Assembly: GCA_027491435.1 (NCBI GenBank)
Contig: JAOZFG010000019.1
Location: 1-10,144, forward strand
Origin: Thermoproteota archaeon
GTDB lineage: Archaea > Korarchaeota > Korarchaeia > Korarchaeales > Korarchaeaceae
DNA length: 10,144 bases
Direction: 5' to 3'
Made by a program: the position numbers and the translations under genes
Notes under the pieces: model-generated
Databases searched by the model: none
Told to the model about the DNA's origin: nothing
The model's input: the letters and a program-made list of their open reading frames with translations, nothing else
Shown here: positions 307-10,144 of the stretch, piece by piece
Numbering within the stretch: the first letter of the stretch is position 1
Layout of the letters: every line of letters starts with the position of its first letter

Positions 307-343
307 TACCCCCCTGATGGATTTCACGTTCTAGCTATTGATA

Positions 344-351
344 GGGGGTGA
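344..351 (+). promoter_or_regulatory. Shine-Dalgarno-like site GGGGGTGA
   Basis: 7 nt upstream of ATG at 359. It matches the archaeal-type SD also seen before cmr4 (GGAGGTG 2090-2096) and near the cmr5 start (GGGTGA 2974-2979). Confidence 0.55.
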
Positions 352-358
352 ACAATCC

Positions 359-970
359 ATGACTTCTGGGAGCTCTCCACAGGGAAGTAGTGGAGATGAC
401 TGTGCTAAAATAAATTTCGAGAAGAACTTATGTGAAGATAAAGGTAAAGATATATCCGAAATGTTTGGGAAGATATGGGGTGTAACCGATTCATCCTTAA
501 TAGTAGTGAGAGATATTATAGAAATAAGCAACGGACAAGGGGCAAAGAAATTAGCCATAAATAATGATAAAAAGAACGAGAAGAACGAGAATATAGATAA
601 CAATACAAGGATTAAAAAGATCTTCATATTATTTTGTAAATTAAGTAAGAAAACCTATATAAATAGCTTATTCGATAGTAATTTCTCTATAGGTAGCAAA
701 TCTATTATTAAATTTCTAGACTTCTGTTACGAAATAAACAATAGTAAGTTGTGTATAGCGGGTGATGCCATAGCCACCGACGTATGTGGTTCAGTGTACG
801 GCTTCCTGAAAATCTGCTTCGATTTGTCGAGCGGGCAATCAGAAGGACAGTCGAGTAACTCCAAAAAATCGAGTAACTCCAAAAAGGTAGTAGGGAAACT
901 TGTGCTACTGGTGGAGAAAATAGATTCGAGCACAGACAAGCCAGCCAAAGGAAGGACAACAACTAAGTGA
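359..970 (+). CDS. Hypothetical protein (~203 aa), first gene of the cmr operon; candidate Cmr-associated accessory protein
   Basis: The ORF track starts at TTG 338, but ATG 359 has a good SD. The stop is 7 nt before the cmr3 start, on the same strand. Low-complexity Ser/Gly/Lys/Asn termini and loops, 7 Cys, no motif I recognise. Confidence 0.7.
   Translation: MTSGSSPQGSSGDDCAKINFEKNLCEDKGKDISEMFGKIWGVTDSSLIVVRDIIEISNGQGAKKLAINNDKKNEKNENIDNNTRIKKIFILFCKLSKKTYINSLFDSNFSIGSKSIIKFLDFCYEINNSKLCIAGDAIATDVCGSVYGFLKICFDLSSGQSEGQSSNSKKSSNSKKVVGKLVLLVEKIDSSTDKPAKGRTTTK
572..589 (+). repeat. 9-bp in-frame tandem duplication AAGAACGAG x2 (KNE KNE)
   Basis: 572-580 and 581-589 are identical. Confidence 0.75.
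851..886 (+). repeat. 18-bp in-frame tandem duplication TCGAGTAACTCCAAAAA(A/G) x2 (SSNSKK x2)
   Basis: 851-868 vs 869-886, 17/18 identical. Confidence 0.9.
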
Positions 971-977
971 GAGAACC

Positions 978-2114
978 ATGACGGATGGCCTTACCCCCTA
1001 CGTGATCCTTCCCAACGCCCCCCTATTTCTAGGGTCAGGCAGGGGCTTCTCCCCATCCACCTCCTTCTGGGACGTCACTTTACCCTTACCTACTCCTTCC
1101 ACCCTGTTTGGGGCGTTTGGCAGGGCAATTTACGAGAACCTAGGCGTTAAAGAATGCGACAGATCTTGCAGAGAGGAGATACTGGAGAAAACGCCCAAGT
1201 TCATACCTTCGATAGCGGAGGTCAGCGGTGATGAGCTAGAGAATCTATATAGCGGGAACGACGTTAAGGCCAAGCTGTACCTGCCATCTCCCCCGATCGT
1301 GAGGAGAGGTGAGTGTATAAGCCTGCCCTGCCTGTCAGAATCAGATCGTTTACTGTTCAGCCCAAAATCACCAGACTGGATTTCCCTTGAGCAGCTCGTC
1401 CATCTGCTTAAATTTAGACGCCTTGAAGGAGAGCTAGACGCCATAGAGTTAGGTGAGGCCCTCTCCTTCGATGACAGGGTCGGGATTAAGCTCTCAGCCG
1501 ATAGGACGGCAGAGAAGGGTTACTTCTACAGGATCACATTGGTGAGTCCTAGGATAGACTTTGATGAGGAAAGGGCCTTCTTCCCTTCATTCCTGGCTGT
1601 AAATGAGGGAAATCAGGAGATAGAAGATTACATGCAGGTAACCTTGGGAGGGGAGAGGAGGGTCGCCATCGTAAGGAAGGTCGAGGTAGAGGGACTAAAT
1701 GACTTAGTTGACCTGCTAGCCAGGGAGAGCAGGTACTACCTCCTGCTGACCCCCGGCATATACTTGGAAACCCCTTGCAGCTTCTCTGAACTCTACACTA
1801 ATAGATCCTTTATAGGCTACTCTCGAGCTAGCGTTTTAGATAGGAGCTCGAGGAAATTCCCATCGAAGTATAGCTCTGTTCTAAGCTGTAGAAAGACGCT
1901 CCCAGCCCCAAAAGGGTTTAAGGCTTACGTGCGAAGGTGGGTGAGCCTACCTCTCACCCTCTGGCATAGGACCCAGGAGAGGGTACTTCTAAGAGCGGTT
2001 TCCGAGGGATCCGTACTGGTTGGAGATGAAGTTGATCGTAGGCCGGTATCCTTTGCTGAGGAGATTGGCTTCGGTTTTACGGTCTCTATGGAGGTGTGTG
2101 AATGTTGCACCTGA
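978..2114 (+). CDS. cmr3: Type III-B CRISPR RAMP protein Cmr3 (Cas5 group)
   Basis: N-terminal PLFLGSGRGF...LPLPTPSTLFGA, central RVGIKL..DRTAEKGYFY, TLGGERR glycine loop, YLLLTPG, C-terminal RAVSEGSV...IGFG. 378 aa; operon context. Confidence 0.9.
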   Translation: MTDGLTPYVILPNAPLFLGSGRGFSPSTSFWDVTLPLPTPSTLFGAFGRAIYENLGVKECDRSCREEILEKTPKFIPSIAEVSGDELENLYSGNDVKAKLYLPSPPIVRRGECISLPCLSESDRLLFSPKSPDWISLEQLVHLLKFRRLEGELDAIELGEALSFDDRVGIKLSADRTAEKGYFYRITLVSPRIDFDEERAFFPSFLAVNEGNQEIEDYMQVTLGGERRVAIVRKVEVEGLNDLVDLLARESRYYLLLTPGIYLETPCSFSELYTNRSFIGYSRASVLDRSSRKFPSKYSSVLSCRKTLPAPKGFKAYVRRWVSLPLTLWHRTQERVLLRAVSEGSVLVGDEVDRRPVSFAEEIGFGFTVSMEVCECCT

Positions 2115-2998
2115 TCATGGTGACTCTAACTCCCCTCCTGCCCTCCAGCGGGTTGGGCAGGGGAGTCATAGATAGGCCCGTTCAGAGGGACCAGGCCACG
2201 GCCTTGCCCACCATATACGGGAGCAGCGTTAAAGGCGCCATAAAGAGTTACCTGATCAGGAAAGGTCATAGGGAGAGGGCTGAGAGGGTGTTGGGAGGAG
2301 AGGAGGGAGGAAAGACTATACCATCGAAGGTTTCCATAGGAGACGCCCTTCTAATGGCCTTGCCTGTGCCTTCAAGGGATCGCTTCATCGTATGGCTGGT
2401 CCCAAAGATCAACCTGCTGAGGATGCTTAGCTACATTAGGGACTTCCGGCCCTGTGAAAGGGATTCGGAATATGAGGTCAAGGAGAACTTCAACCTTTAT
2501 ACTATGGCAGGGCCTGACCCTAACGATTCTGACCCTAATAATGAAAAAATTAATGTGATGGATTCGGTGATTCCGTTAAAAAAGTTAGAGAATAATGAGT
2601 TAAATCTTAAGAAGGTAACGGGTATCTTAGTTGACTCGTTAGACAAGACCTTCGGGGAGATGTTCGAGGAGTACAACGTGATCCTGTTGGAAAATAAGTA
2701 CGTGAGGCACTTCGTCGAGAAGGGGCTCGGAAAAAGGGCCAGAATAAAGATAGACTACGAGACTGGAACTGTGGAGTCTGGAAAGCTCTGGTACGAGGAG
2801 TATTATCCACCCTACACGGTGTTTTTCGTGCCGGTACTTCCAACGAGGACCTGTGAGCACCGAAACCTCCCTGAAAGGGGCGTATGTGAGCTCTTCCGAG
2901 ACCTTTCAGGTAGAACTGTGCCCTTCGGTGGCTCCTTAACCGTCGGGATGGGCTTTACAAAAGTCTACATGTTGGGTGATATGCTTGACCTTATATGA
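2102..2998 (+). CDS. cmr4: Type III-B CRISPR RAMP protein Cmr4 (Cas7 group, target-RNA-cleaving backbone subunit)
   Basis: VIDRPVQRD (D24 aligns by eye with the catalytic Asp), LPTIYGSSVKGAIK, DALLMALPVPS, RIKIDYETGTVESGKLWYEEY, GGSLTVGMG. SD GGAGGTG; overlaps cmr3 by 13 nt. Confidence 0.93.
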   Translation: MLHLIMVTLTPLLPSSGLGRGVIDRPVQRDQATALPTIYGSSVKGAIKSYLIRKGHRERAERVLGGEEGGKTIPSKVSIGDALLMALPVPSRDRFIVWLVPKINLLRMLSYIRDFRPCERDSEYEVKENFNLYTMAGPDPNDSDPNNEKINVMDSVIPLKKLENNELNLKKVTGILVDSLDKTFGEMFEEYNVILLENKYVRHFVEKGLGKRARIKIDYETGTVESGKLWYEEYYPPYTVFFVPVLPTRTCEHRNLPERGVCELFRDLSGRTVPFGGSLTVGMGFTKVYMLGDMLDLI

Positions 2999-3452
2999 CG
3001 GAATCTTCTACAGTAAGGAGTCTTATAAGGCGGCCTTAGTGGCCATCAACTCACTAGGTAAGGCCTACTCGCCGACCGTAAAGAAGTACCTGTTCATGCT
3101 AGAGCTAAGGGGCGTCGCCCCAACTCTGCTGAACCTGATAAAGAGCTCAAAACTTGATAACGGAAGATGTAAAAGCTTCTATGATAATCTGATCAGCTAT
3201 CTAAATGAAGAGGTAATTAGAGAGCCGGCTGACGGGGAGGATATTTTGCTCATACAGGTGCTCTCCCTAATTATAAGGATGAAGCCTGAGAGGTTCCGAT
3301 GCAAAAACTTAAGGGTCCTCCTCTGGTGCCTCATCGATGAGCTCATTCACGATTACCAGTTTAACCTGGAGGTCTACAGCTTGATCAAACCATTTCTTGA
3401 GAATTTAGCTGAGATATCAGAGGCCCTAGAGAGCGTCAGGGGGTTAAAATGA
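2976..3452 (+). CDS. cmr5: Type III-B small subunit Cmr5 (Cas11 group), divergent
   Basis: Small, helical-looking protein between cmr4 and cmr6. YSPTVKKYLFMLELRGVAPTL resembles the Cmr5 Y..vKk....I...Gl..Tl motif; C-terminal helix FLENLAEISEAL. Start uncertain (GTG 2976, or TTG 2985 after GGGTGA). Confidence 0.75.
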   Translation: MICLTLYDGIFYSKESYKAALVAINSLGKAYSPTVKKYLFMLELRGVAPTLLNLIKSSKLDNGRCKSFYDNLISYLNEEVIREPADGEDILLIQVLSLIIRMKPERFRCKNLRVLLWCLIDELIHDYQFNLEVYSLIKPFLENLAEISEALESVRGLK

Positions 3453-4309
3453 CAGAAAATGAGGTGAAAAATCCCCTGTACCCGATTTACTTCGTTCCGG
3501 AAGAACTTTTAAGCTCTAAAGTCGACTTTCCAAAGCTCCCTATAGAGCTAGTAGAGATAAAAGATAAGCATAAACATAAGAAAAAAGGGAAGGATTTCCG
3601 TAATATGTTAGGGGAATCCTCTTATTTTATCGAGGAAAGAGGAATTACTAAAAAATACTATGAGGCGGTGGTGAAGTCTCTTTCAGGGCTTCAAGATATC
3701 ACCCTAGTTGAAGTGACCGCCGTAACTGAGACGAGGCTTCTCGTAGGGGCCGGCCTTCCCCTGGATAATCTGGGCATATTCCTGGAGTTCCCTCACGGTT
3801 TACCCGTCATACCCGGTTCCTCCCTCAAGGGGTTTATCAGGAGCTACTTAAGGGCGGAGCTCTTTCAGGGATCTAAGTGCTTCCAAGAGTACGAGGAGCT
3901 GTTGTTCGGCAGTTCAGGTGAGGAGGGCTTTTCAGGCTCTGTTGTATTCGTTGGAGGCTTTCCCGTTGAGAGCGAGTCCGGCTTCTTCGACTTGGACGTG
4001 TTAGCCCCCCATTACTCGAAGTACTACAGGAATAGGGGTTCCATTGGCCCTGATGATTTTAAGGATGATGTTAAGCCCGTAAGGTACGTGGTGGTTAAGC
4101 CCGGAGTCACTTACAAGTTCTTGCTGCTTTTCCGGGATTTTCAGAAGTTGCCTTCCACTCTATTCTGCCGGTTCATCTCGGAATTTCAAAGGGCGTTAAA
4201 GGAGTACGGAGTTGGTTACGGGATCTCCAAGGGGTATGGGGTGTTCTCCTCGAAGGGGGTGAAGATAATCGATGAAACCGAGGGAGAGCTCATGCTTAGA
4301 AGCTGCTAG
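3449..4309 (+). CDS. cmr6: Type III-B CRISPR RAMP protein Cmr6
   Basis: RLLVGAG, HGLPVIPGSSLKGFIR, LLFGS, GSVVFVGGFP, LDVLAPHYSKYY, PVRYVVVKPG, GVGYGISKGYG. ATGA overlap with cmr5. Confidence 0.93.
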   Translation: MTENEVKNPLYPIYFVPEELLSSKVDFPKLPIELVEIKDKHKHKKKGKDFRNMLGESSYFIEERGITKKYYEAVVKSLSGLQDITLVEVTAVTETRLLVGAGLPLDNLGIFLEFPHGLPVIPGSSLKGFIRSYLRAELFQGSKCFQEYEELLFGSSGEEGFSGSVVFVGGFPVESESGFFDLDVLAPHYSKYYRNRGSIGPDDFKDDVKPVRYVVVKPGVTYKFLLLFRDFQKLPSTLFCRFISEFQRALKEYGVGYGISKGYGVFSSKGVKIIDETEGELMLRSC

Positions 4310-7300
4310 GATCTGGGGCCTCCTGCACGATCCTGTCATTAAGCCCATTATCATGAGAAGAATATCTCATAAAGAAGTAGCTCAAGAAATATGTAAAAAA
4401 TTATTTGGGGAAAGAATCAAAATTAAAATGCCCTTGGAGATTGAAGAACATCCGGATTTAATAGCTTCCGGCAGCGACAGGGAGCTTCCAACAAGCCGTC
4501 TTTCAGTGACATGGGCACATGAGGAAAGCATAGAGGTGCTTCACCCCCTATCCTACAGGAGGCTAGGATGTTCTAGGGATAAATGTTTAAATTATAGGAG
4601 TCCTGAGGGGATATCAGATTCGGAATTGCTACTAATGTCAATATTAGTTAAATTATCATTGGCAAGTAACTACAAAAAAACAAATAAATTCTCAGATTTC
4701 TATAAGAGTGTAGTCCCTGAAAAATTCAAGGAAATTGCCTACAGATTGTTGGGCTTCTTCGGCGATAACCCGGCTAAGGACCTCTGCTCAGATAACGATG
4801 GGGTTCCGATAACCTCTTCTCTCCTGTGGAGGGCTCTCCCCAAGATAACTGCTTGCCTCTACCTTTACAGCAAGGATTACTTTAAAGAGAGTGCGTTTGA
4901 GGATCTCCCCTTTGATGAGAAGCACGTCGGGTTTGTGGTTAAGAATCTACTACCTGCAGACACCAGATTTCCTTACAACCCTATTTATGACCATTTGGAA
5001 GCCACGATGGCCATAGCCCCTCTCTTGATGTTTGAGAGAGAAAAAGACGACTTCATCCACTACCTAATTTTCAAAGTTGATTCTATCGATGAGTTCTTGG
5101 CTGAATCGAGGACTACCGCAGACTTTTGGGCCTCTAGCATGTTGGTAAGCCTGATAACCTGGAAGGCAATTTACGACATAGTGAAACCCGAGCCAGATAA
5201 CCCTCACAGCTTGGCTAACGTAGTTTATCCCTCCCTTGACGGCTCTGTGTGGGCAGACCTTTATTTAGCGTCACTGATTAAGGATAAAAGAACCAGAAGT
5301 TGCTTCTTGAGGAACGTCGTCTGCGATAGGAGGCCCCTCCACGAGCTGCTGCTGAGGCCTGAGCTTCCAGGCACGTTCTTGGCCTGGGTGAGCAAAAATT
5401 ATTTGAACGATAGGGTGTTTATAGAAGATTCATATGAAGATTTAGTCGGCGATATAGTACGCAATTTCCTAAAATTGATCGAAAATGCCTCTGGTGGAAG
5501 CTCTAGCGATATGGAGAGCCCTCGGGAGGTCGTGCCTGCCACCGGCCATACGAAAAATGCCTCTGGTGGAAGCTCTAGCGATATGGAGAGCCTAAAACTG
5601 ATAGAGGGAGAGGCCATAGTACAGCTTGAAAGCACCCTGCCTAAAGTTAAGTACGAGCTGGTAGATTGGTTAACCGGACAGACCTACCGTAAAGGCTACG
5701 TTTTCAATAAAAATAAGTTAGGAGGGCTTATTTGCCAGATGGAACGCCTGAGTAATGAGTTATCCTACTATTCCGACTACCACGGAGATAATGCCAGAAG
5801 ACACGTCGGAGTTATAGAACGGCTTAGAGACCTCTTCTACTCCAAAGTGGCTGTAGGTGAGATCTACCCGGAGATTCACCACCTTGCCAAGTTCAGGCTA
5901 ATCACCCAGCCCAGCCAGGAGAGCTGGTCCGTTCAAAGGGCGCCTATGTGCACGGTCTGTGGGAAGAGGACGGCGCTGTTCGATAAAACCTTTGACCCCT
6001 TGGACCTGATTAGGCCTAGGGAAAGGCTTTGCGCCGTCTGTTACATGAAGAGGTCTTTAAGGAAGGTGAGGGACGACGACTCCCTCCTGGTGAGTTTGCT
6101 AAAAAGAGTGGGAATCCTAGACGACTCGTGTCTGTTTGAGGACAACATCAAGAATGAGTTAAGGAAGAGGTACCCTTCAACTGATGACTTGGCAGTGGCT
6201 CCCTACCTAAAATTATACCGTGATAGATTGGAAGATTTTATCAGTAAAATTAGAGAAGAATTAAGAAAAGAATTGGGAGAAAGGAAAATAAATGAAGAAA
6301 AGTTTGGAGAGAAAGAACTAAAGGAAAAAATAAAGGAATTGAAGAACGAGTTGAGGAAGAGGGATAAAGGGGAATCTAAGTGCAATGAGAGGGGGCTAAG
6401 GGAGACAGTCCAGAGTTTGGATAGCCTGATCTCCTACCTCACTTACTACGAGTGGTTTTTGGATTCAGAGCCAATTCCCGGGAGCCTCCTCTACAGGGAA
6501 GTGCATGAGGGAGCCCTTGAGGAAATAAAAAACCTGAAAAGGTTGGAATGTCTGCAGGGCGACTTTCAGAACCTAGATAAAGTTAGTAATCTGGCTAGTA
6601 GCGCCTTAAATAAATTGAAGGAGGTATACGGGGACGTGGGAGCTCCCAGCGATTATTACGCTGTCTTAATAGCCGACGTCGACGGAGTTGACGACTACAT
6701 CATGGGGGTGTTCGGGCCCTCCCTCAAGGAGGGAGTGCACTCCGGGGTCCTTAAGCTCATCGAATCAATAGAGGACTTCACTTCCTGGGTAGTCCCCACC
6801 AGGCATAAAGCGTTAAGTAGGCTCCTTAGGGAGTTCTGTCTATACCTAGGGCCTAAAGTAGTTGAGGAGAACTTAGGAATAACCGTTCTAGCTGGCGGCG
6901 ATGAGATCTACGCTCTGCTCCCTGGAAGCGAGGCTTTAAACGCTGCAGTTGTGATTGAGAGGGAGTTTTCAAAGCCCATCGTTGATTTGGGCGACAGGTT
7001 TATCTTCGGATCCGACAAATCGCTCACCGTCAGCTCCTCGATTGTCATAGCCCACAGGATGTTCCCCGTCGGCCAGGCATTCAGGAAGGCTAAGGAGCTC
7101 CTTGACAGGGTTAAGGCCTTTAGGAAGGGCTACGGGAGGATGTGGCCCGAAAGGATACGTCTCAGATGCAGGAACGTTGAGGGGGTTGAGGGCTGGATTG
7201 GGGTTAAGCTGATCAGCAGGGGAATGAAGGAGACAGAAGCTCTGCTGCCAGCCTCCGTGGCATCCTTGGCCCTCGACTTGATAAAGGTGGTGGAAGGCAG

Positions 7301-7628
7301 AGGGCCATGCCTCTTTTGCCTTGATGGGAATGGCCGTAGCAAGTTAAGCAGGAACTTTCTGTACGACGTTCAAGACGTCAAGAGGCATTGGGATAGATCT
7401 CAGGACTTGAGAGACCTCGTGAAGGTGCTTATCTGGAGGTGGATTGACAGGAACAGTTTAGAGCCTTCAGGGGTAGAGGACGTCAAGGGCTTAGTGGGAA
7501 AGGCGTTAAGCAAGTTGTACTGGTACGAGGACAACTTCGCTGAAAAGGGAGGAGAGCCTCAGAACCTCGTTGAACAGTTCCTGAATTTCCTGCTGATAGC
7601 TGATAAGGCCACGAGGGGAGGGACATGA
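4272..7628 (+). CDS. cas10: Cas10/Cmr2 large subunit with N-terminal HD domain, Zn-finger and variant Palm (GGDE) motif
   Basis: LLHDP..K (HD at 4326-4331), DLIASGSDR, HPLS, LPADTRFP....DH, Palm1 FLAESRTTADFWASS, CTVC...ERLCAVC.KR, YPST, YYAVLIADVD, HKALSR, AGGDEIYALLP, IVIAH..P. 1118 aa. Confidence 0.96.
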   Translation: MKPRESSCLEAARIWGLLHDPVIKPIIMRRISHKEVAQEICKKLFGERIKIKMPLEIEEHPDLIASGSDRELPTSRLSVTWAHEESIEVLHPLSYRRLGCSRDKCLNYRSPEGISDSELLLMSILVKLSLASNYKKTNKFSDFYKSVVPEKFKEIAYRLLGFFGDNPAKDLCSDNDGVPITSSLLWRALPKITACLYLYSKDYFKESAFEDLPFDEKHVGFVVKNLLPADTRFPYNPIYDHLEATMAIAPLLMFEREKDDFIHYLIFKVDSIDEFLAESRTTADFWASSMLVSLITWKAIYDIVKPEPDNPHSLANVVYPSLDGSVWADLYLASLIKDKRTRSCFLRNVVCDRRPLHELLLRPELPGTFLAWVSKNYLNDRVFIEDSYEDLVGDIVRNFLKLIENASGGSSSDMESPREVVPATGHTKNASGGSSSDMESLKLIEGEAIVQLESTLPKVKYELVDWLTGQTYRKGYVFNKNKLGGLICQMERLSNELSYYSDYHGDNARRHVGVIERLRDLFYSKVAVGEIYPEIHHLAKFRLITQPSQESWSVQRAPMCTVCGKRTALFDKTFDPLDLIRPRERLCAVCYMKRSLRKVRDDDSLLVSLLKRVGILDDSCLFEDNIKNELRKRYPSTDDLAVAPYLKLYRDRLEDFISKIREELRKELGERKINEEKFGEKELKEKIKELKNELRKRDKGESKCNERGLRETVQSLDSLISYLTYYEWFLDSEPIPGSLLYREVHEGALEEIKNLKRLECLQGDFQNLDKVSNLASSALNKLKEVYGDVGAPSDYYAVLIADVDGVDDYIMGVFGPSLKEGVHSGVLKLIESIEDFTSWVVPTRHKALSRLLREFCLYLGPKVVEENLGITVLAGGDEIYALLPGSEALNAAVVIEREFSKPIVDLGDRFIFGSDKSLTVSSSIVIAHRMFPVGQAFRKAKELLDRVKAFRKGYGRMWPERIRLRCRNVEGVEGWIGVKLISRGMKETEALLPASVASLALDLIKVVEGRGPCLFCLDGNGRSKLSRNFLYDVQDVKRHWDRSQDLRDLVKVLIWRWIDRNSLEPSGVEDVKGLVGKALSKLYWYEDNFAEKGGEPQNLVEQFLNFLLIADKATRGGT
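5482..5592 (+). repeat. Perfect 39-bp direct repeat separated by a 33-bp unique segment, in frame within cas10
   Basis: AAAATGCCTCTGGTGGAAGCTCTAGCGATATGGAGAGCC at 5482-5520 and 5554-5592. Period 72 nt; encodes NASGGSSSDMES twice. Confidence 0.95.
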
Positions 7629-8590
7629 GGGCTAGGGCCGTAGTGAGGTCCATAACTCCACTCCTAATAGGAGGGTGGTGCGGTAAGGCCAGGTGTGACG
7701 GCTCAGATGAGGGGCTTAGGCCCTCTTCCGTGAGAGGCGTCGCCAGGGAGTTCTTCAGGAACGTGGCGTATCGCATGATCCCTGAGAGAAAATGGGAACA
7801 GGTCTACAGGTTGGAATCAAGGCTCTTCGGGAGCACCGAGCAGGCATCCCCTTTCATCGTGAGGATCAGGCCTAATGGGATTGTGTACGATGTAAGGCCC
7901 TGGTGTACAGCCGCTGGTAGGGTATATAAGGGCAACAACAGGATATCTAGGATGTTCTACCCGTTAAGACAAATGGACAACGTTAGCTGCTACAGGGATT
8001 TCACTATAGACGTGCTTCCAAGAAGGTCCATCCTCAACAGGTTGTCCAGCAGGGAAGAAGATCAAGAGAGCCTCCTTAGAACGTTCGTCCTCTCTATAAC
8101 TACTTCCCTAGCCATCTTAGGAGTAGGAAAGAGGAGAAGCAGGGGGATGGGGAAGCTCCTACCGATAGAGGTTGAGGTTAACGGAGAAAACTTGTTGAAG
8201 GATGCTGTTGACCTTCAGAAGGCGTTGTGGTGTCGTAAATCAGATGAAGATGGCTGGGCACCCTTTAAGAATTCAGTGAAGTCTCTGGGAGGTGCGGAGC
8301 CAGATCACCCTAGAGGATTGTGCGTGGATTACGTCAAGTCCTTAGAGCTATGTCCCCTAAATAACTTTCTCACCGAAATCAGGAGAGTTGTTAAGGCGTG
8401 TCGAGATAAGGTCTTCGTGACAGTATCCGTTGAGGATTACCTGTTAAGGAACGATTATCAAGTGCCCTGCACGAACCTAACAAGAAAGAGTTATCTTATC
8501 GGAAGGCTACAGGGGTTCTACCTATTCGTTAAGGACAGAAAAGTCATGGAGAGGGATAGAGCAGTAAAGAAAGTCGTAAAGACTACCTAG
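7625..8590 (+). CDS. cmr1: Type III-B CRISPR RAMP protein Cmr1
   Basis: ITPLLIGG, LRPSSVRGVAREFFR, ESRLFGST...SPFIVRI, LGVGKRRSRGMG. ATGA overlap with cas10; C-terminal half divergent. Confidence 0.88.
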   Translation: MRARAVVRSITPLLIGGWCGKARCDGSDEGLRPSSVRGVAREFFRNVAYRMIPERKWEQVYRLESRLFGSTEQASPFIVRIRPNGIVYDVRPWCTAAGRVYKGNNRISRMFYPLRQMDNVSCYRDFTIDVLPRRSILNRLSSREEDQESLLRTFVLSITTSLAILGVGKRRSRGMGKLLPIEVEVNGENLLKDAVDLQKALWCRKSDEDGWAPFKNSVKSLGGAEPDHPRGLCVDYVKSLELCPLNNFLTEIRRVVKACRDKVFVTVSVEDYLLRNDYQVPCTNLTRKSYLIGRLQGFYLFVKDRKVMERDRAVKKVVKTT

Positions 8591-9341
8591 AGTGCAAGGA
8601 GAGGTAAGAGAAAGACATCTAAGGGGGGCCCTAGGAAACTTCGGTAATTCTGGGCTCAAAGGCACTAATGCTTTTAGCCAGCGTGACGATCGGCTGCTCC
8701 CTAGGCGACTTCAACCGATGTGAAAGTAGGGTGGTGCTGTAACCTTAAGGTCCCCCGGCTTTGACCACAGCAAGAGTTTTCAGTTATAGGCCGATAGCAG
8801 CGTTATGGCTCCCTATTATACGTGAAAACGAAGTTCAGGACGTGAACCCCAAGCCCTCCCAACCGTAAGGTGGAGCTCGCTGAACAGAATAGAACGCCTG
8901 TCCTGGCCTCTAGACTATGGCCCCAAATCCACGATCAGCCTGTAGGGTACACTCTCTTACGCGTGAATACCTGAGCACTTCCCAGGGAAGGCTAGCAACC
9001 CACCTCCGTCGCTTCTCGCCACATCAGCGTGAGTATGGAGCCGCCCGATAAACCTCATAGCGGGTCCAGCCGTCTCGTACTCAGAGCTGCCACTTTAGAC
9101 GAGCTGGCTCAAACCGTATCTTTATTAACCTCACGGCCCCTCTAAAGTGTGAGGTCAAACTGGTTGGCACGCCGTTGAGTTGGACGCTGAGAGTAAGGGA
9201 GCTAGAAGGTCCCTTCAACCTTCCTATAGGGCTCTAGCATACCACATCTCTCCCTGGGAAGGCCGCCAGGGTGTTAGCCGGTACAGGGAAGTTTCCTCAG
9301 GGGGTCACCTAAGATAGGGCAGTGGGATATACCTGGCCCCC

Positions 9342-9697
9342 TTTGAAGAGAGATCAATTTCGAAGATGCTGCTTGAAGGCAAGGTTGGGGAAGGGTCTAC
9401 TACGACTCCCCGGTATGAAATACCTCTTCAGTGAAGATGCAATGGAATTCCAGCGAGCTAGTTGCGATGGTCTGGCTGCTCTTAGAGGAGGTAAACCTTC
9501 TGGAGCATCAGGGGATCTGTTAGACCAGCTATAGTTGCCAGAAACTAGAGTGTCGTACCACAGGAAGATTTGAAGTACCCTGAGGAGGTATTGTTAAGGG
9601 TTAACTTTACCTAGATGAGGGGATTGAGAAGGATTATCGGATGTGTAGGGCTTTTTTGGAAAACGGGCGACGTTCCTTTTTGAAGAGAAATCAATTT
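9342..9697. repeat. Two copies of 19-bp motif TTTGAAGAGA(G/A)ATCAATTT
   Basis: 9342-9360 and 9679-9697, 18/19 identical. Each contains a TTGA-N7-TCAA dyad. Confidence 0.75.
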
Positions 9698-9853
9698 AAG
9701 AGGTGATTAGGGCGGTGAGGGTTCCCATAATAGTTTAGGTTCAAACTAAGGGGCCCCCATAAGTTACTAGGGAGCGTCCTTCGACTAGAGCTGTCGTGAG
9801 GCAGGAGGGGCTCTGTATACTCAAAGTTAAATAATGTGCTTAACATCAATTTT

Positions 9854-9868
9854 CCATTTTATAAATGG
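9854..9868. promoter_or_regulatory. Palindromic TATA-like element CCATTT-TAT-AAATGG in an AT-rich island
   Basis: A 6-bp inverted repeat overlaps TTTATAAA (9858-9865) inside AT-rich ~9815-9900. No clear associated gene in the window. Confidence 0.35.
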
Positions 9869-10144
9869 CAGATAAAGAACATAATTCAACCTCATAAAAC
9901 TGGTGCTGTCAACTTAAAGCCACCTCCACGCTTTAACGCCAGCGTGAGCATTTTCTACATTCTGGGCCTGACACAAGGTACTGGCTCCCCCTGAGGGTCA
10001 TGTGGCTGACGAAGTTTAAGACATGAACCGAAGCCTTCCTAGCCGTTAGCAGGTAACGCTTGCTGTGAATAGACGTCGAATCCCCTAAGCCTCTTTATGG
10101 TCTCTATGATCTTAACGTAGCTCCTCTCGCCACCGCTCATCATG

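Follow-up and report, generated by a model that had tools for sequence, protein, structure and literature searches.

Loss of cyclase function by Cas10, with retention of the HD domain, is a known and recurrent event that is described for the III-C, III-G as well as III-H subtypes in the available parts of PMC12669027 and PMC11229360; some 97% of Cas10 proteins are predicted to be active (PMC12669027). In EiCsm1, as presented in the accessible text of PMC11734703, the ATP bound on the Palm1 side has its adenine held by Gln261, Ser280 and Tyr580, with Asp530 and Asp584 as metal ligands. Departures from the GGDD motif are also documented. In a type III-D2 Cas10 that is active, GGDE serves as the catalytic motif (PMC13294483), and both GGDE and AGDE occur among the motif variants found with known effectors in the available portion of PMC11229360, GGDQ being absent from the variants given there. 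SAM-AMP synthases differ from cyclic oligoadenylate (cOA) synthases by acidic pocket residues (PMC10600005). Here, a Cas10 with an altered Palm pocket, encoded in an archaeal metagenome-assembled genome of the Crenarchaeota, is compared with these proteins.

Results

Organisation of the variant operon

The window, a stretch of 10,144 nucleotides, is the whole of a 10-kb contig, one end of which lies in a dispersed repeat. Judged by its predicted genes (Table 1), it carries all of an effector operon of type III-B (Cmr), in divergent form and with the gene order cmr3-4-5?-6-2-1, in which Cmr1, Cmr3, Cmr4 and Cmr6 are recognised by their families and Cmr5 is assigned by position only. The cmr3 product scored 52.4 bits with TIGR01888, under the 100.4-bit cut-off of that model. 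The GVIDRP motif of Cmr4 pairs with GVVDQP of P. furiosus Cmr4 (4wnz) in a phmmer alignment, which places D24 opposite D26, which we take to be the catalytic aspartate of the P. furiosus protein. The candidate small subunit, ORF158, had no HMM, PADLOC or PDB match and no BLASTP similarity to the canonical Cmr5 of the source genome; ESM Atlas gave 0.86 at best and pointed to no informative family, and the single-sequence AF2 model is all-helical with a pLDDT of 46.7. Similarly, sequence searches of Pfam, NCBIfam, PADLOC and PDB gave no match for ORF210, which is weakly similar (BLASTP E 3e-5, 35% over 57 aa) to a 191-aa ORF (ORF191) situated directly upstream of the orthologous cas10 in a second genome of the genus, G002. 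AF2 modelling of ORF210/ORF191 returned a pLDDT of 34, i.e. an unusable model.

Neither a CRISPR array nor an effector gene was found in the variant locus, and an Rfam search of the window gave no match. The GC content of the contig is 0.479, compared with 0.49-0.58 for the other contigs of the genome; this lower value had suggested a plasmid or virus, for which no support was found. Membership of subtype III-C or III-G was rejected, since the Cas10 protein scores over the cut-off of the Cmr2 model and the aspartate of Cmr4 is retained.

Table 1. Position of the genes and Cas10 motifs in the window.
Feature	Coordinates	Strand	Basis or remark
ORF210, no family match, possible accessory gene of variant module	338..970	+	Adjoins cmr3 upstream
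cmr3 (Cas5 family)	978..2114	+	PF09700 E 3.2e-16; PADLOC Cmr3 E 1.5e-19
cmr4 (Cas7 backbone RNase), putative catalytic Asp D24 kept	2102..2998	+	TIGR02580 145.9 bits, cut-off 87
ORF158, candidate small subunit (Cmr5/Cas11)	2976..3452	+	Position only, between cmr4 and cmr6
cmr6	3449..4309	+	TIGR01898 97.9 bits, cut-off 51.1
cas10/cmr2 (P0001)	4272..7628	+	1118 aa; TIGR02577, PF12469, PF22335
HD dipeptide H19 D20, N-terminal nuclease domain	4326..4331	+	Aligns with LLHDP of canonical Cmr2s
Palm1 motif FKVDSIDEFLAESRTTADFWASS	5070..5138	+	D273 where near-invariant Gln expected
In-frame internal duplication (NASGGSSSDMES x2), variable insert	5482..5592	+	Perfect 39-nt direct repeat, 72 nt apart
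Zinc finger CTVC (C560-C563) ... CAVC (C587-C590)	5949..6041	+	Aligns with canonical Cmr2s
Palm2 strand 1 ADVDGVDD	6672..6695	+	Replaces xDGDxMGx; D802, D804 kept
LAGGDE (L873, E878)	6888..6905	+	Replaces YAGGDD
K948, near-invariant Lys, kept	7113..7115	+	K in 148/152
cmr1	7625..8590	+	TIGR01894 32.1 bits, cut-off 28.65; PADLOC Cmr1

The Cas10 protein (P0001) scored 125.9 bits with TIGR02577, the curated Cmr2 family model (cut-off 79.4), 66.2 bits with PF22335 (cut-off 27) and 51.3 bits with PF12469 (cut-off 25), and matched P. furiosus Cmr2 (PDB 4w8y) with an E value of 1.9e-24 in phmmer. In the latter alignment ADVDGVDD pairs with MDGDDMGK, LAGGDEIYALLP with YAGGDDVLAILP, and KVDSIDEFLAESRTTADFWASS with KIVPVQPFIANSRKQLDLWASS. 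An earlier note on this DNA had drawn attention to the Palm motifs, and translation reproduced its readings to the base: gcc gac gtc gac gga gtt gac gac at 6672-6695 encodes A801 D V D G V D D808, ggc ggc gat gag at 6894-6905 encodes G875 G D E878, and the Palm1 reading DSIDEF is confirmed by F267 K V D S I D273 E F L (KVDSIDEF) from 5070 onwards. The HD motifs and zinc finger are retained, as the note had also stated. H19 D20, D62, D69-R70 and H91 align with the residues of canonical Cmr2s, the columns of the HD dipeptide holding His in 128 and Asp in 126 of 152 Cmr2 representatives, and C560, C563, C587 and C590 do not vary across alignment A1. Assignment of an HD nuclease domain comes from the HD motifs only, an HD-domain HMM having matched neither P0001 nor the canonical Cmr2 of the same genome (P0008). 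The 39-nt direct repeat within the gene was not reported by Tandem Repeats Finder.

Conservation of the Palm motifs

The Palm motifs were examined by column counts in a MAFFT alignment of P0001 and 151 other Cmr2 proteins, drawn from 1380 hits. Fifty positions of this 152-sequence alignment are at least 88% conserved, and P0001 is off consensus at 13 of them, the highest figure of the 152 (median 2); the canonical paralogue deviates at 2 of the 50. By these counts the departure of P0001 from the consensus is greater than chance would give, and the motifs that the earlier note had called usual for Cmr2 are indeed so, since the column counts agree with them. The changes include Q273D, G803V, G807D, Y873L and D878E. 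The Gln of the Palm1 VQxF motif is present in 138 sequences and replaced by Asp in 2; the residue preceding AGGDD is Tyr in 143 and Leu in 5, the present clade included. At the first Gly of DGDxMG the counts are G 142, A 7 and V 3, the three valines belonging to P0001 and its two closest relatives (below). The second Gly of that motif is conserved in 141 sequences, and the Asp at this position (D807) is unique to P0001. A valine at the first of these glycines is often found in type III-A Cas10s.

The fourth position of GGDD is D in 145 sequences, E in 4, Q in 2 and G in 1, and three other Cmr2 representatives (P0025, P0077 and P0066) combine GGDE or AGDE with otherwise normal motifs. Given also its occurrence in active and effector-linked Cas10s (PMC13294483, and the available part of PMC11229360), GGDE on its own is not diagnostic of altered chemistry. 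Nor are the SRTTAD, WASS and LPGTF variants special, although the earlier note had listed them: T281, A283 and S288 occur in 15, 12 and 29 of the 152 sequences, respectively, and the column of the Asn in LPNxF (N 121, G 5) holds Gly (G367) in both P0001 and the canonical paralogue, so that, on the alignment, these variants are ordinary lineage variation or common to GGDD-bearing sister sequences. The informative changes are those at the adenine-holding Gln (D273) and Tyr (L873) and at the two DGDxMG glycines (V803 and D807).

Residues were mapped to EiCsm1 and LlCsm1 by motif register as opposed to superposition. In this register, with roles taken from the accessible text of PMC11734703, D273 and L873 occupy the positions of Gln261 and Tyr580, and D802 and D877 those of the metal-binding Asp530 and Asp584. 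The strand-1 metal Asp is D in 151 of 152 Cmr2s, and K948, invariant among P0001 and its two relatives, would be the equivalent of the catalytic Lys648 of EiCsm1. Hence the earlier statement that acidic metal ligands are kept and pocket residues changed holds, the latter changes being coordinated and clade-specific; P0001 retains what appear to be all of the residues for two-metal chemistry (D802, D804, D877, E878 and K948). The column of G367 probably corresponds to Pfu N300 / Bfr D70, and the region of Pfu R436 aligns poorly, to S548 of P0001 in a 4.2-bit segment (phmmer).

A clade of three sequences

Only two proteins, P0002, which is encoded on an ENA contig of 35.9 kb, and P0003, were found to be relatives of P0001 at clade level in a collection of ~15 billion proteins, and the clade is thus defined by three sequences, one of them a fragment. 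A word-indexed search (5 hits among 7999 scored candidates) and an exhaustive search of representatives (5 of 1380 hits at E<=1e-30) revealed no further members, and a search for proteins shorter than 614 aa with the Palm2 region added none. Among 36 genomes of the family, 2 match P0001 at E<=1e-35, the source genome (G000) included; 9 of 61 relatives match at E<=1e-10, with G002 alone at clade level. A scan of GTDB contigs identified one locus, that of G002, and a scan of JGI metagenomes five, of which only the same G002 contig is at clade level. Plasmid and phage collections contained no tblastn match at 1e-10.

The three proteins form one clade with a support of 1.0 and a long stem (0.82), within which P0002 and P0003 are sisters. 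Since the sister group of the clade takes in the source genome's own GGDD Cmr2, the clade states are derived. P0002 deviates at 12 of the near-invariant columns and P0003 at 10 of the 36 that it covers. Although P0001 and P0002 are only 33% identical overall, their Palm motifs are 84%, 80% and 68% identical in 25-residue windows, the best-conserved such window (residues 273-297, 84%) overlapping the Palm1 motif. All three members have V803, L873 and V933, and the HD residues are kept throughout. Position 273 is acidic in each (D/D/E), whereas position 270 reads D/R/D and position 807 D/N/N, so that a change of several pocket residues to Asp, taken as a feature conserved across the clade, is only partly borne out. 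P0002 and P0003 both read GGDQ, and P0002 also has Asn in place of the strand-1 metal Asp (NVD); by alignment, P0001 keeps its Palm catalytic residues, and substitutions among them are seen in P0002 (N, Q) and in P0003 (Q). The fourth GGDD codon is GAG in P0001 and CAG in G002, one step apart, which, with GGDQ in the sisters, fits a change from D to E on the stem followed by E to Q. The earlier note had asked whether close homologues conserve the substitutions: they do at V803, L873 and the acidic 273, and do not at GGDE, the GGDQ of both relatives and the strand-1 Asn of one fitting decay better than conserved new catalysis.

Genomic company and effectors

The source genome carries a second, canonical Cmr locus on contig C43, with a GGDD Cas10 (P0008), and P0001 is, from its sequence, the large subunit of this genome's other type III-B complex, which is of a very rare kind. 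G002 encodes an AGDE Cas10 13 kb from the clade cas10, such that a second Cmr locus is present in both of the clade genomes with known context, which belong to the same genus. Searches with Pfam, NCBIfam and PADLOC found no CARF or SAVED effector on the contig, nor was one found beside the G002 orthologue, and neither locus has a neighbour recognisable as a candidate sensor gene. Elsewhere in the source genome there are three CARF-type genes, encoding two Csa3 proteins and one small APE2256-family protein, and no match for Csx1 HEPN, TM1812, Card1 or Cas02710. The source genome gave no match to SAVED, a weak negative because the model matched none of the control genomes, and three sub-threshold matches to CorA (PF01544; best 21.4 bits, cut-off 27), which is weak evidence because CRISPR-associated CorA proteins are divergent. 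The effector search proposed earlier therefore yielded CARF proteins, and neither SAVED nor CorA over cut-off. The absence of an effector from the window, previously said to fit either outcome of the note, carries little weight because the window is a single 10-kb contig with a dispersed repeat at its end and a canonical Cmr and CARF-type genes are located elsewhere.

Discussion

The reading favoured here, with a probability of roughly 0.55, is that P0001, P0002 and P0003 represent a clade of Cmr2 paralogues in which cOA synthesis has been lost, or nearly so, and which works via Cmr4 and the HD nuclease, P0001 being, as part of the same reading, its least decayed member. The clade would have branched from ordinary crenarchaeal Cmr2s, with remodelling of the pocket between the two Palm domains on its stem: Asp/Glu and Leu would have taken the place of the Gln and Tyr that hold the Palm1-side adenine, Val and Asp/Asn that of two DGDxMG glycines, and GGDE that of GGDD. 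We infer that this remodelling abolished or strongly reduced cOA synthesis, and that the metal ligands drifted afterwards, to GGDQ in both relatives and, in one of them, from Asp to Asn on strand 1. The variant complex would still be guided by crRNAs from the shared arrays of the genome, with target RNA being cut by Cmr4 and the conserved HD domain of Cas10 presumably conducting target-RNA-activated DNA cleavage, any signalling being left to the co-resident canonical Cmr. The sequence features, rarity, conservation pattern and genomic company of the clade were observed directly, and that most of the changes in P0001 appear common to the clade counts for this reading. So do the derived states on the long stem, the GGDQ of the relatives, absent from the variants given with known effectors, the HD residues kept in all three members, the other Cmr locus in both genomes of known context and the precedent of recurrent cyclase loss in other subtypes. 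The earlier note had envisaged two outcomes, a signalling-dead, HD-only Cmr or a Cas10 whose product is a different messenger; of these, the first is favoured by the evidence, the second keeping a smaller share.

The features that stand against a loss of cOA synthesis are those expected if P0001 were an ordinary, active cOA synthase in which GGDE and the other changes are tolerated and the products sensed by the CARF proteins of the genome. P0001 itself keeps every acidic ligand together with the near-invariant Lys; GGDE is catalytic in the type III-D2 Cas10 (PMC13294483), is found in effector-linked Cas10s (PMC11229360, available part) and, with AGDE, accompanies normal motifs in the three representatives noted above. 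The Palm motifs, moreover, are the best-conserved parts of the clade, which is contrary to free decay, although this could reflect structural roles of the Palm core. However, this alternative has to accommodate replacement of the Gln and Tyr conserved in 138 and 143 of 152 Cmr2s, the substitution of branched or charged residues for glycines present in 142 and 141, and GGDQ and NVD in the relatives. It also lacks an effector gene on the contig or beside the G002 orthologue, and the canonical Cmr can account for the CARF genes. It is considered possible, if on balance doubtful.

A remodelled pocket that is still functional, whether in the synthesis of a new messenger or as a receptor gating the HD domain in a two-complex relay, seems unlikely; such a relay has, to our knowledge, yet to be described for type III systems. 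In the first version P0001 would be a nucleotidyl transferase with a changed nucleophile-side substrate, Palm2 binding ATP and metals and the Palm1-side pocket, remodelled to an acidic 273 in place of the adenine-reading Gln and to Leu 873 in place of the stacking Tyr, taking a substrate other than ATP, to give a non-cOA messenger in the manner of the SAM-AMP synthases. The combination of retained catalytic residues with altered base- and phosphate-contacting residues would be expected of such an enzyme, as would an acidic position 273 in all three members and pocket motifs conserved more strongly than any other part of the clade; the acidic pocket residues that set SAM-AMP synthases apart (PMC10600005), one of which uses GGDE (PMC13294483), offer a precedent. 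Conversely, GGDQ in the relatives and Asn at the metal Asp of one make a conserved catalytic function unlikely for the clade, position 270 is not conserved, and the position probably matching Pfu N300 / Bfr D70 is a Gly common to the canonical paralogue. With no CorA match over cut-off in the source genome and no candidate sensor gene recognised beside either locus, a changed substrate is regarded as distinctly improbable.

In bacterial signalling proteins, GGDEF domains that have degenerated serve as receptors. That the Palm pocket is likewise a non-catalytic ligand sensor gating the HD nuclease, perhaps by reading the cOA of the co-resident Cmr, is very improbable. Pocket motifs strongly conserved in relatives that have lost catalytic residues would suit a sensor, as would a second Cmr locus in 2 of 2 genomes with known context; but folding, together with contacts that the Palm core makes to Cmr3, crRNA handle and target anti-tag, accounts for the conservation just as well, and the two genomes are of one genus.

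The clade constitutes a natural series from which to learn which residues set substrate choice as opposed to catalysis, and lets one ask what an HD-only Cmr adds beside a signalling Cmr. Should the pocket be active on another substrate, a messenger class would be added; should it be dead, the clade would be a tidy yet unsurprising case of reductive evolution. Similar variants may already be present in the Cas10 motif tables of PMC11229360 or data file 3 of PMC12669027.

In comparison with canonical Cmr2 (4w8y and P0008), P0001 has the same succession of HD, Palm1, zinc finger, Palm2 and C-terminal domains, exceeds the TIGR02577 cut-off, lies in an operon with cmr1, 3, 4 and 6, and keeps the near-invariant Lys along with two aspartates, that of strand 1 and the first one in GGDD. 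It differs from P0008 in the number of near-invariant columns changed (13 versus 2 of 50), and its operon differs from the canonical locus on C43, which has the order cmr2-3-4-5-1-6, in gene order and in a small subunit that is unrecognisable. The AGDE / Gln-to-Gly Cmr2 lineage (P0066 and the Cas10s of G007 and G002) resembles P0001 in having E as fourth residue and in the loss of the Palm1 Gln; unlike P0001, it keeps DGDxxG and Tyr-Ser-AGDE and sits on a different branch. This lineage, of the same genus, falls in the sister group of the P0001 clade.

With the type III-D2 SAM-AMP Cas10, P0001 shares GGDE (PMC13294483), and with SAM-AMP Cas10s generally the entry of acidic residues into the Palm1-side pocket while the catalytic acids are kept (PMC13294483, PMC10600005). 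In SAM-AMP Cas10s, however, the acidic residues match Pfu N300 and R436 in position (D70 and E151 in Bfr), whereas the acidic change in P0001 is at the Gln equivalent and apparently not at the equivalents of those two, the match to N300 being a probable one and the region of R436 aligning poorly. In contrast to the B. fragilis III-B and III-D2 proteins, P0001 has an HD domain, its genome is without a CorA match over cut-off, and its relatives read GGDQ.

The Cas10s of III-C, III-G as well as III-H, as far as the available text of PMC12669027 and PMC11229360 describes them, resemble P0001 in that pocket residues are replaced and the HD motif kept, in loci devoid of effector and CRISPR array, and in genomes whose other CRISPR loci could supply crRNA. 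Unlike them, P0001 keeps its catalytic acids, which only its two relatives lose, scores as Cmr2 and belongs to a full Cmr1/3/4/6 operon; and Cmr4 of the variant operon keeps D24, whereas the Cas7 catalytic aspartates are lost in III-G and III-H. Cyclase loss here would seem to be an event of its own, within a III-B operon that is complete in other respects, and appears to have been caught early, with the substrate-reading residues gone, the metal ligands intact in P0001 and eroding in its relatives, and a canonical Cmr present in the same genome.

Motifs of the window's Cas10 compared with canonical Cmr2

The motifs that the earlier note reported for P0001, the window's Cas10/Cmr2 protein, were found in the DNA at exactly the positions given for them (Table), and phmmer comparison with P. 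furiosus Cmr2 (4w8y; E 1.9e-24) pairs them with MDGDDMGK, GGDD and IVPVQPFI. An alignment of P0001 with 151 other fetched proteins (152 sequences; the exhaustive search matches 1380 in all) bears out the motifs taken as usual, the canonical residues being near-invariant: the fourth residue of GGDD is Asp in 145 sequences (Glu in 4, Gln in 2, Gly in 1), the Gly of DGD is retained in 142 (Ala in 7, Val in 3) and that of xMG in 141, the Gln of VQxF in 138 (Asp in 2), the Tyr preceding GGDD in 143 (Leu in 5, Phe in 4) and the strand-1 Asp in 151 (Asn in 1). At 50 consensus columns, each at least 88% conserved, P0001 departs from consensus at 13, the highest value among the 152 sequences (median 2); P0008, the canonical Cmr2 of the same genome, departs at 2. 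Retention of the HD motifs and zinc finger is likewise upheld, with H19 D20, the companion residues D62, D69-R70 and H91, and all four zinc-finger cysteines aligning with canonical Cmr2 sequences. Conversely, SRTTAD and WASS had been thought unusual, but T281, A283 and S288 are common Cmr2 variants; the same applies to LPGTF, since G367 is common to the GGDD-bearing P0008 and is thus a lineage trait.

Between Palm1 and the zinc finger, a variable insert contains a perfect 39-nt direct repeat, the copies 72 nt apart; it encodes NASGGSSSDMES twice and reflects a recent duplication in frame or else an artefact of assembly. A Lys/Glu-rich insert (REELRKELGERKINEEKFGEKELKEKIKELKNELRKRDK) between the zinc finger and Palm2 aligns poorly with relatives of P0001 and is probably a coiled coil.

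Relatives and conservation of the pocket

An exhaustive search of 1.84 billion representatives recovered only two proteins above the ordinary Cmr2 level (∼1e-32), namely P0002 (1158 aa, E 3.5e-120) and P0003 (a 642 aa fragment, E 2.3e-78). A word-indexed search returned the same pair and none beyond, a shorter-fragment search found no relatives, scans of GTDB and JGI contigs added no clade members, and the family's 34 remaining genomes gave no match at E<=1e-35. The gene encoding P0003 is divided between the ends of two contigs in the congeneric genome G002; P0003 itself covers the C-terminal half, and the N-terminal half was taken from contig C10 of that genome. In a midpoint-rooted FastTree phylogeny (152 sequences, 774 columns) the three proteins form one clade with support of 1.0 and a long stem, within which P0002 and P0003 pair with each other. 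P0008 falls in the sister group of the clade, indicating that the unusual states are derived from an ordinary crenarchaeal Cmr2.

Conservation of the substitutions among homologues, which the earlier note had proposed as a check, is partial. V803, L873 and V933 are common to all three proteins, position 273 is always acidic (D, D, E), position 807 is never Gly (D, N, N), and the string ESRTTADFWASS is unchanged, but the fourth GGDD residue is Glu in P0001 and Gln in both relatives, and position 270 differs (D, R, D). In P0002, Asn replaces the strand-1 Asp. The codon for the fourth GGDD residue is GAG in the window and CAG in G002, so that the cheapest history is D>E on the stem with E>Q later. 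Between P0001 and P0002 it is the Palm motifs that supply the best-conserved windows of 25 residues, with identities of 84%, 80%, 72% and 68% against an overall identity of 33%.

Operon, contig and genomic company

The window is one complete contig (C25, 10,144 bp) of a genome of 1.64 Mb in 43 contigs (completeness 99.5%), and it carries the variant module as seven plus-strand ORFs at 338-8590, six of which could be named, five by HMM and the small subunit by position only. Cmr4 retains the Asp aligning with P. furiosus D26, which we take to be the catalytic residue. ORF210 and a 191-aa ORF of G002 each adjoin a variant Cmr module and have in common a weak motif, L.I.G.....D.CGSV.GF (BLASTP E 3e-5); neither has a family match, and on this likeness they may represent a clade-specific accessory subunit. 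AF2 models of ORF210 and the small-subunit ORF were too poor for use, and searches with the latter in Atlas, and with both against PDB sequences, were blank. Plasmid and phage collections gave no match (tblastn, 1e-10).

Features of the window and of related loci.
Feature	Position	Strand	Basis or remark
ORF210	338-970	+	no match
cmr3	978-2114	+	HMM
cmr4	2102-2998	+	HMM
small subunit, 158 aa	2976-3452	+	position only, no match
cmr6	3449-4309	+	HMM
cas10/cmr2 (P0001, 1118 aa)	4272-7628	+	HMM
FKVDSIDEFL	from 5070		read from DNA
39-nt direct repeat	5482-5592		inside cas10
Lys/Glu-rich insert	6190-6390		inside cas10
ADVDGVDD	6672-6695
GGDE	6894-6905
cmr1	7625-8590	+	HMM
region downstream of cmr1	8591-9900		∼1.3 kb
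dispersed repeat	9902-10144		last ∼240 bases
191-aa ORF	L018:1463-2038	-	G002
second-lineage cmr2	L018:14323-17667	-	G002
667-aa ORF	L003:3272-5275	-	contig C43
noted with 667-aa ORF	L003:1821-2654	-	contig C43
CRISPR array	C4:10202-10520		contig end
CRISPR array	C15:37-704		contig end

The final 1.5 kb of the window contains no ORF longer than 70 aa and no Rfam match, and the region downstream of cmr1 has no DNA match among 20 genomes of the genus. The contig ends in one copy of a dispersed repeat with 16 other matches in the genome (71-91% identity, many at contig ends) and 2 more in G020, which belongs to the same genus; the repeat is likely to be a small mobile element at which the assembly breaks. 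With a GC content of 0.479 (0.40 in its first 1 kb), the contig lies below all 42 others of the genome (0.49-0.58), which hints at recent acquisition.

Because the contig breaks off in a repeat found at many contig ends, the absence of an effector from the window, previously said to fit either reading, is only weakly informative. A family search of the whole genome did find CARF proteins (two Csa3-type genes and one APE2256-family protein of 251 aa with a weak ring-nuclease match), but no Csx1 HEPN, TM1812, Card1 or Cas02710, CorA matches below cut-off only, and no SAVED, the last a weak negative since the model matched none of the control genomes.

On contig C43 the genome has another Cmr locus, ordered cmr2-3-4-5-1-6, and its Cas10, P0008, reads LHDP, GGVQKF, DGDRIG and GGDD. 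Directly after its cmr6 lies a 667-aa ORF that matches nothing in Pfam, NCBIfam or PADLOC and is a candidate for an unrecognised ancillary effector. Beyond this ORF come a ClpP-like serine protease of the SDH type and a coiled-coil protein that weakly matches PD-(D/E)XK. CRISPR arrays of a single repeat type stand at two contig ends. The repeat contains CTTTCAATCCCCTTTTCGGG, and the complement of the repeat contains ATTGAAAG, presumably the usual 8-nt archaeal crRNA handle; either Cmr complex could use the arrays.

In G002 the variant cas10 lies 13 kb from another Cmr locus, whose Cas10 reads AGDE and GGVGKF. This second Cmr2 lineage, present also in G007 (L016), combines AGDE in Palm2 with a Palm1 motif of GGVG.F (Gln to Gly) and retains DGDxVG and the Tyr; cyclase-motif variation thus seems common in the genus.

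Interpretation

The most economical reading of the sequences, to which we give a probability of about 0.55, is that P0001 is a Cmr2 paralogue in which cOA synthesis would be lost or weakened, defence proceeding through cleavage of RNA and HD-dependent cleavage of DNA. The paralogue would have lost the residues that read the Palm1-side ATP, cOA synthesis would then have been lost or greatly weakened, and the metal ligands would since have been eroding, differently among members, with the HD motif fixed throughout; the variant complex would defend beside a signalling-competent Cmr. Two findings count against this loss of cyclase function, namely that P0001 retains every catalytic residue and that conservation of the pocket motifs within the clade is strong, and these leave room for three alternatives. 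Ordinary activity of P0001 is the likeliest of these, though doubtful, and action on a changed substrate is unlikely. That the pocket has become ligand-sensing is more improbable still.

Comparison with known systems

This comparison draws on excerpts of the published papers. In E. italicus Csm, Asp530 and Asp584 hold two Mg ions, Lys648 also contacts triphosphate, Gln261, Ser280 and Tyr580 hold the adenine of the Palm1-side ATP, and Asp256, Ser258, Lys382 and Lys385 bind its triphosphate (PMC11734703); the matching loop of L. lactis is D253-M254-S255-G256-V257-Q258 (PMC13294483). By motif register, Gln261 (Gln258 in L. lactis) would correspond to D273 of P0001, Ser258 (Ser255) to D270, Tyr580 to L873, Asp530 to D802 and Asp584 to D877. 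On this mapping, the contention that acidic ligands were kept and pocket residues changed appears sound (D802 and D877 versus D273 and L873); the near-invariant K948 is also retained. However, GGDE can no longer be taken as a sign of unusual chemistry: it is among the motif variants that occur with known effectors, from which GGDQ is absent (PMC11229360), and is the catalytic motif of a SAM-AMP-making type III-D2 Cas10 (PMC13294483). SAM-AMP synthases are set apart from cOA synthases by acidic residues matching Pfu N300 and R436 (PMC10600005), whereas the probable N300 column of P0001 is Gly, as in P0008; its R436 region aligns too poorly for a comparison.

A full-text search for GGDE-bearing Cas10 proteins gave only PMC11229360 and PMC13294483, and the excerpts lack the combination of Gln>Asp/Glu, Tyr>Leu, DVDxV[DN] and GGD[EQ]. 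By prediction, approximately 97% of Cas10 proteins are active (PMC12669027; PMC11229360). Membership of subtype III-C, III-G or III-H was rejected for the window locus, which passes the Cmr2 model, has a full Cmr set and retains the Cmr4 Asp. The locus is best filed as a new and very rare variant within III-B, possibly at an early stage of the reductive route by which these subtypes lost the cyclase.
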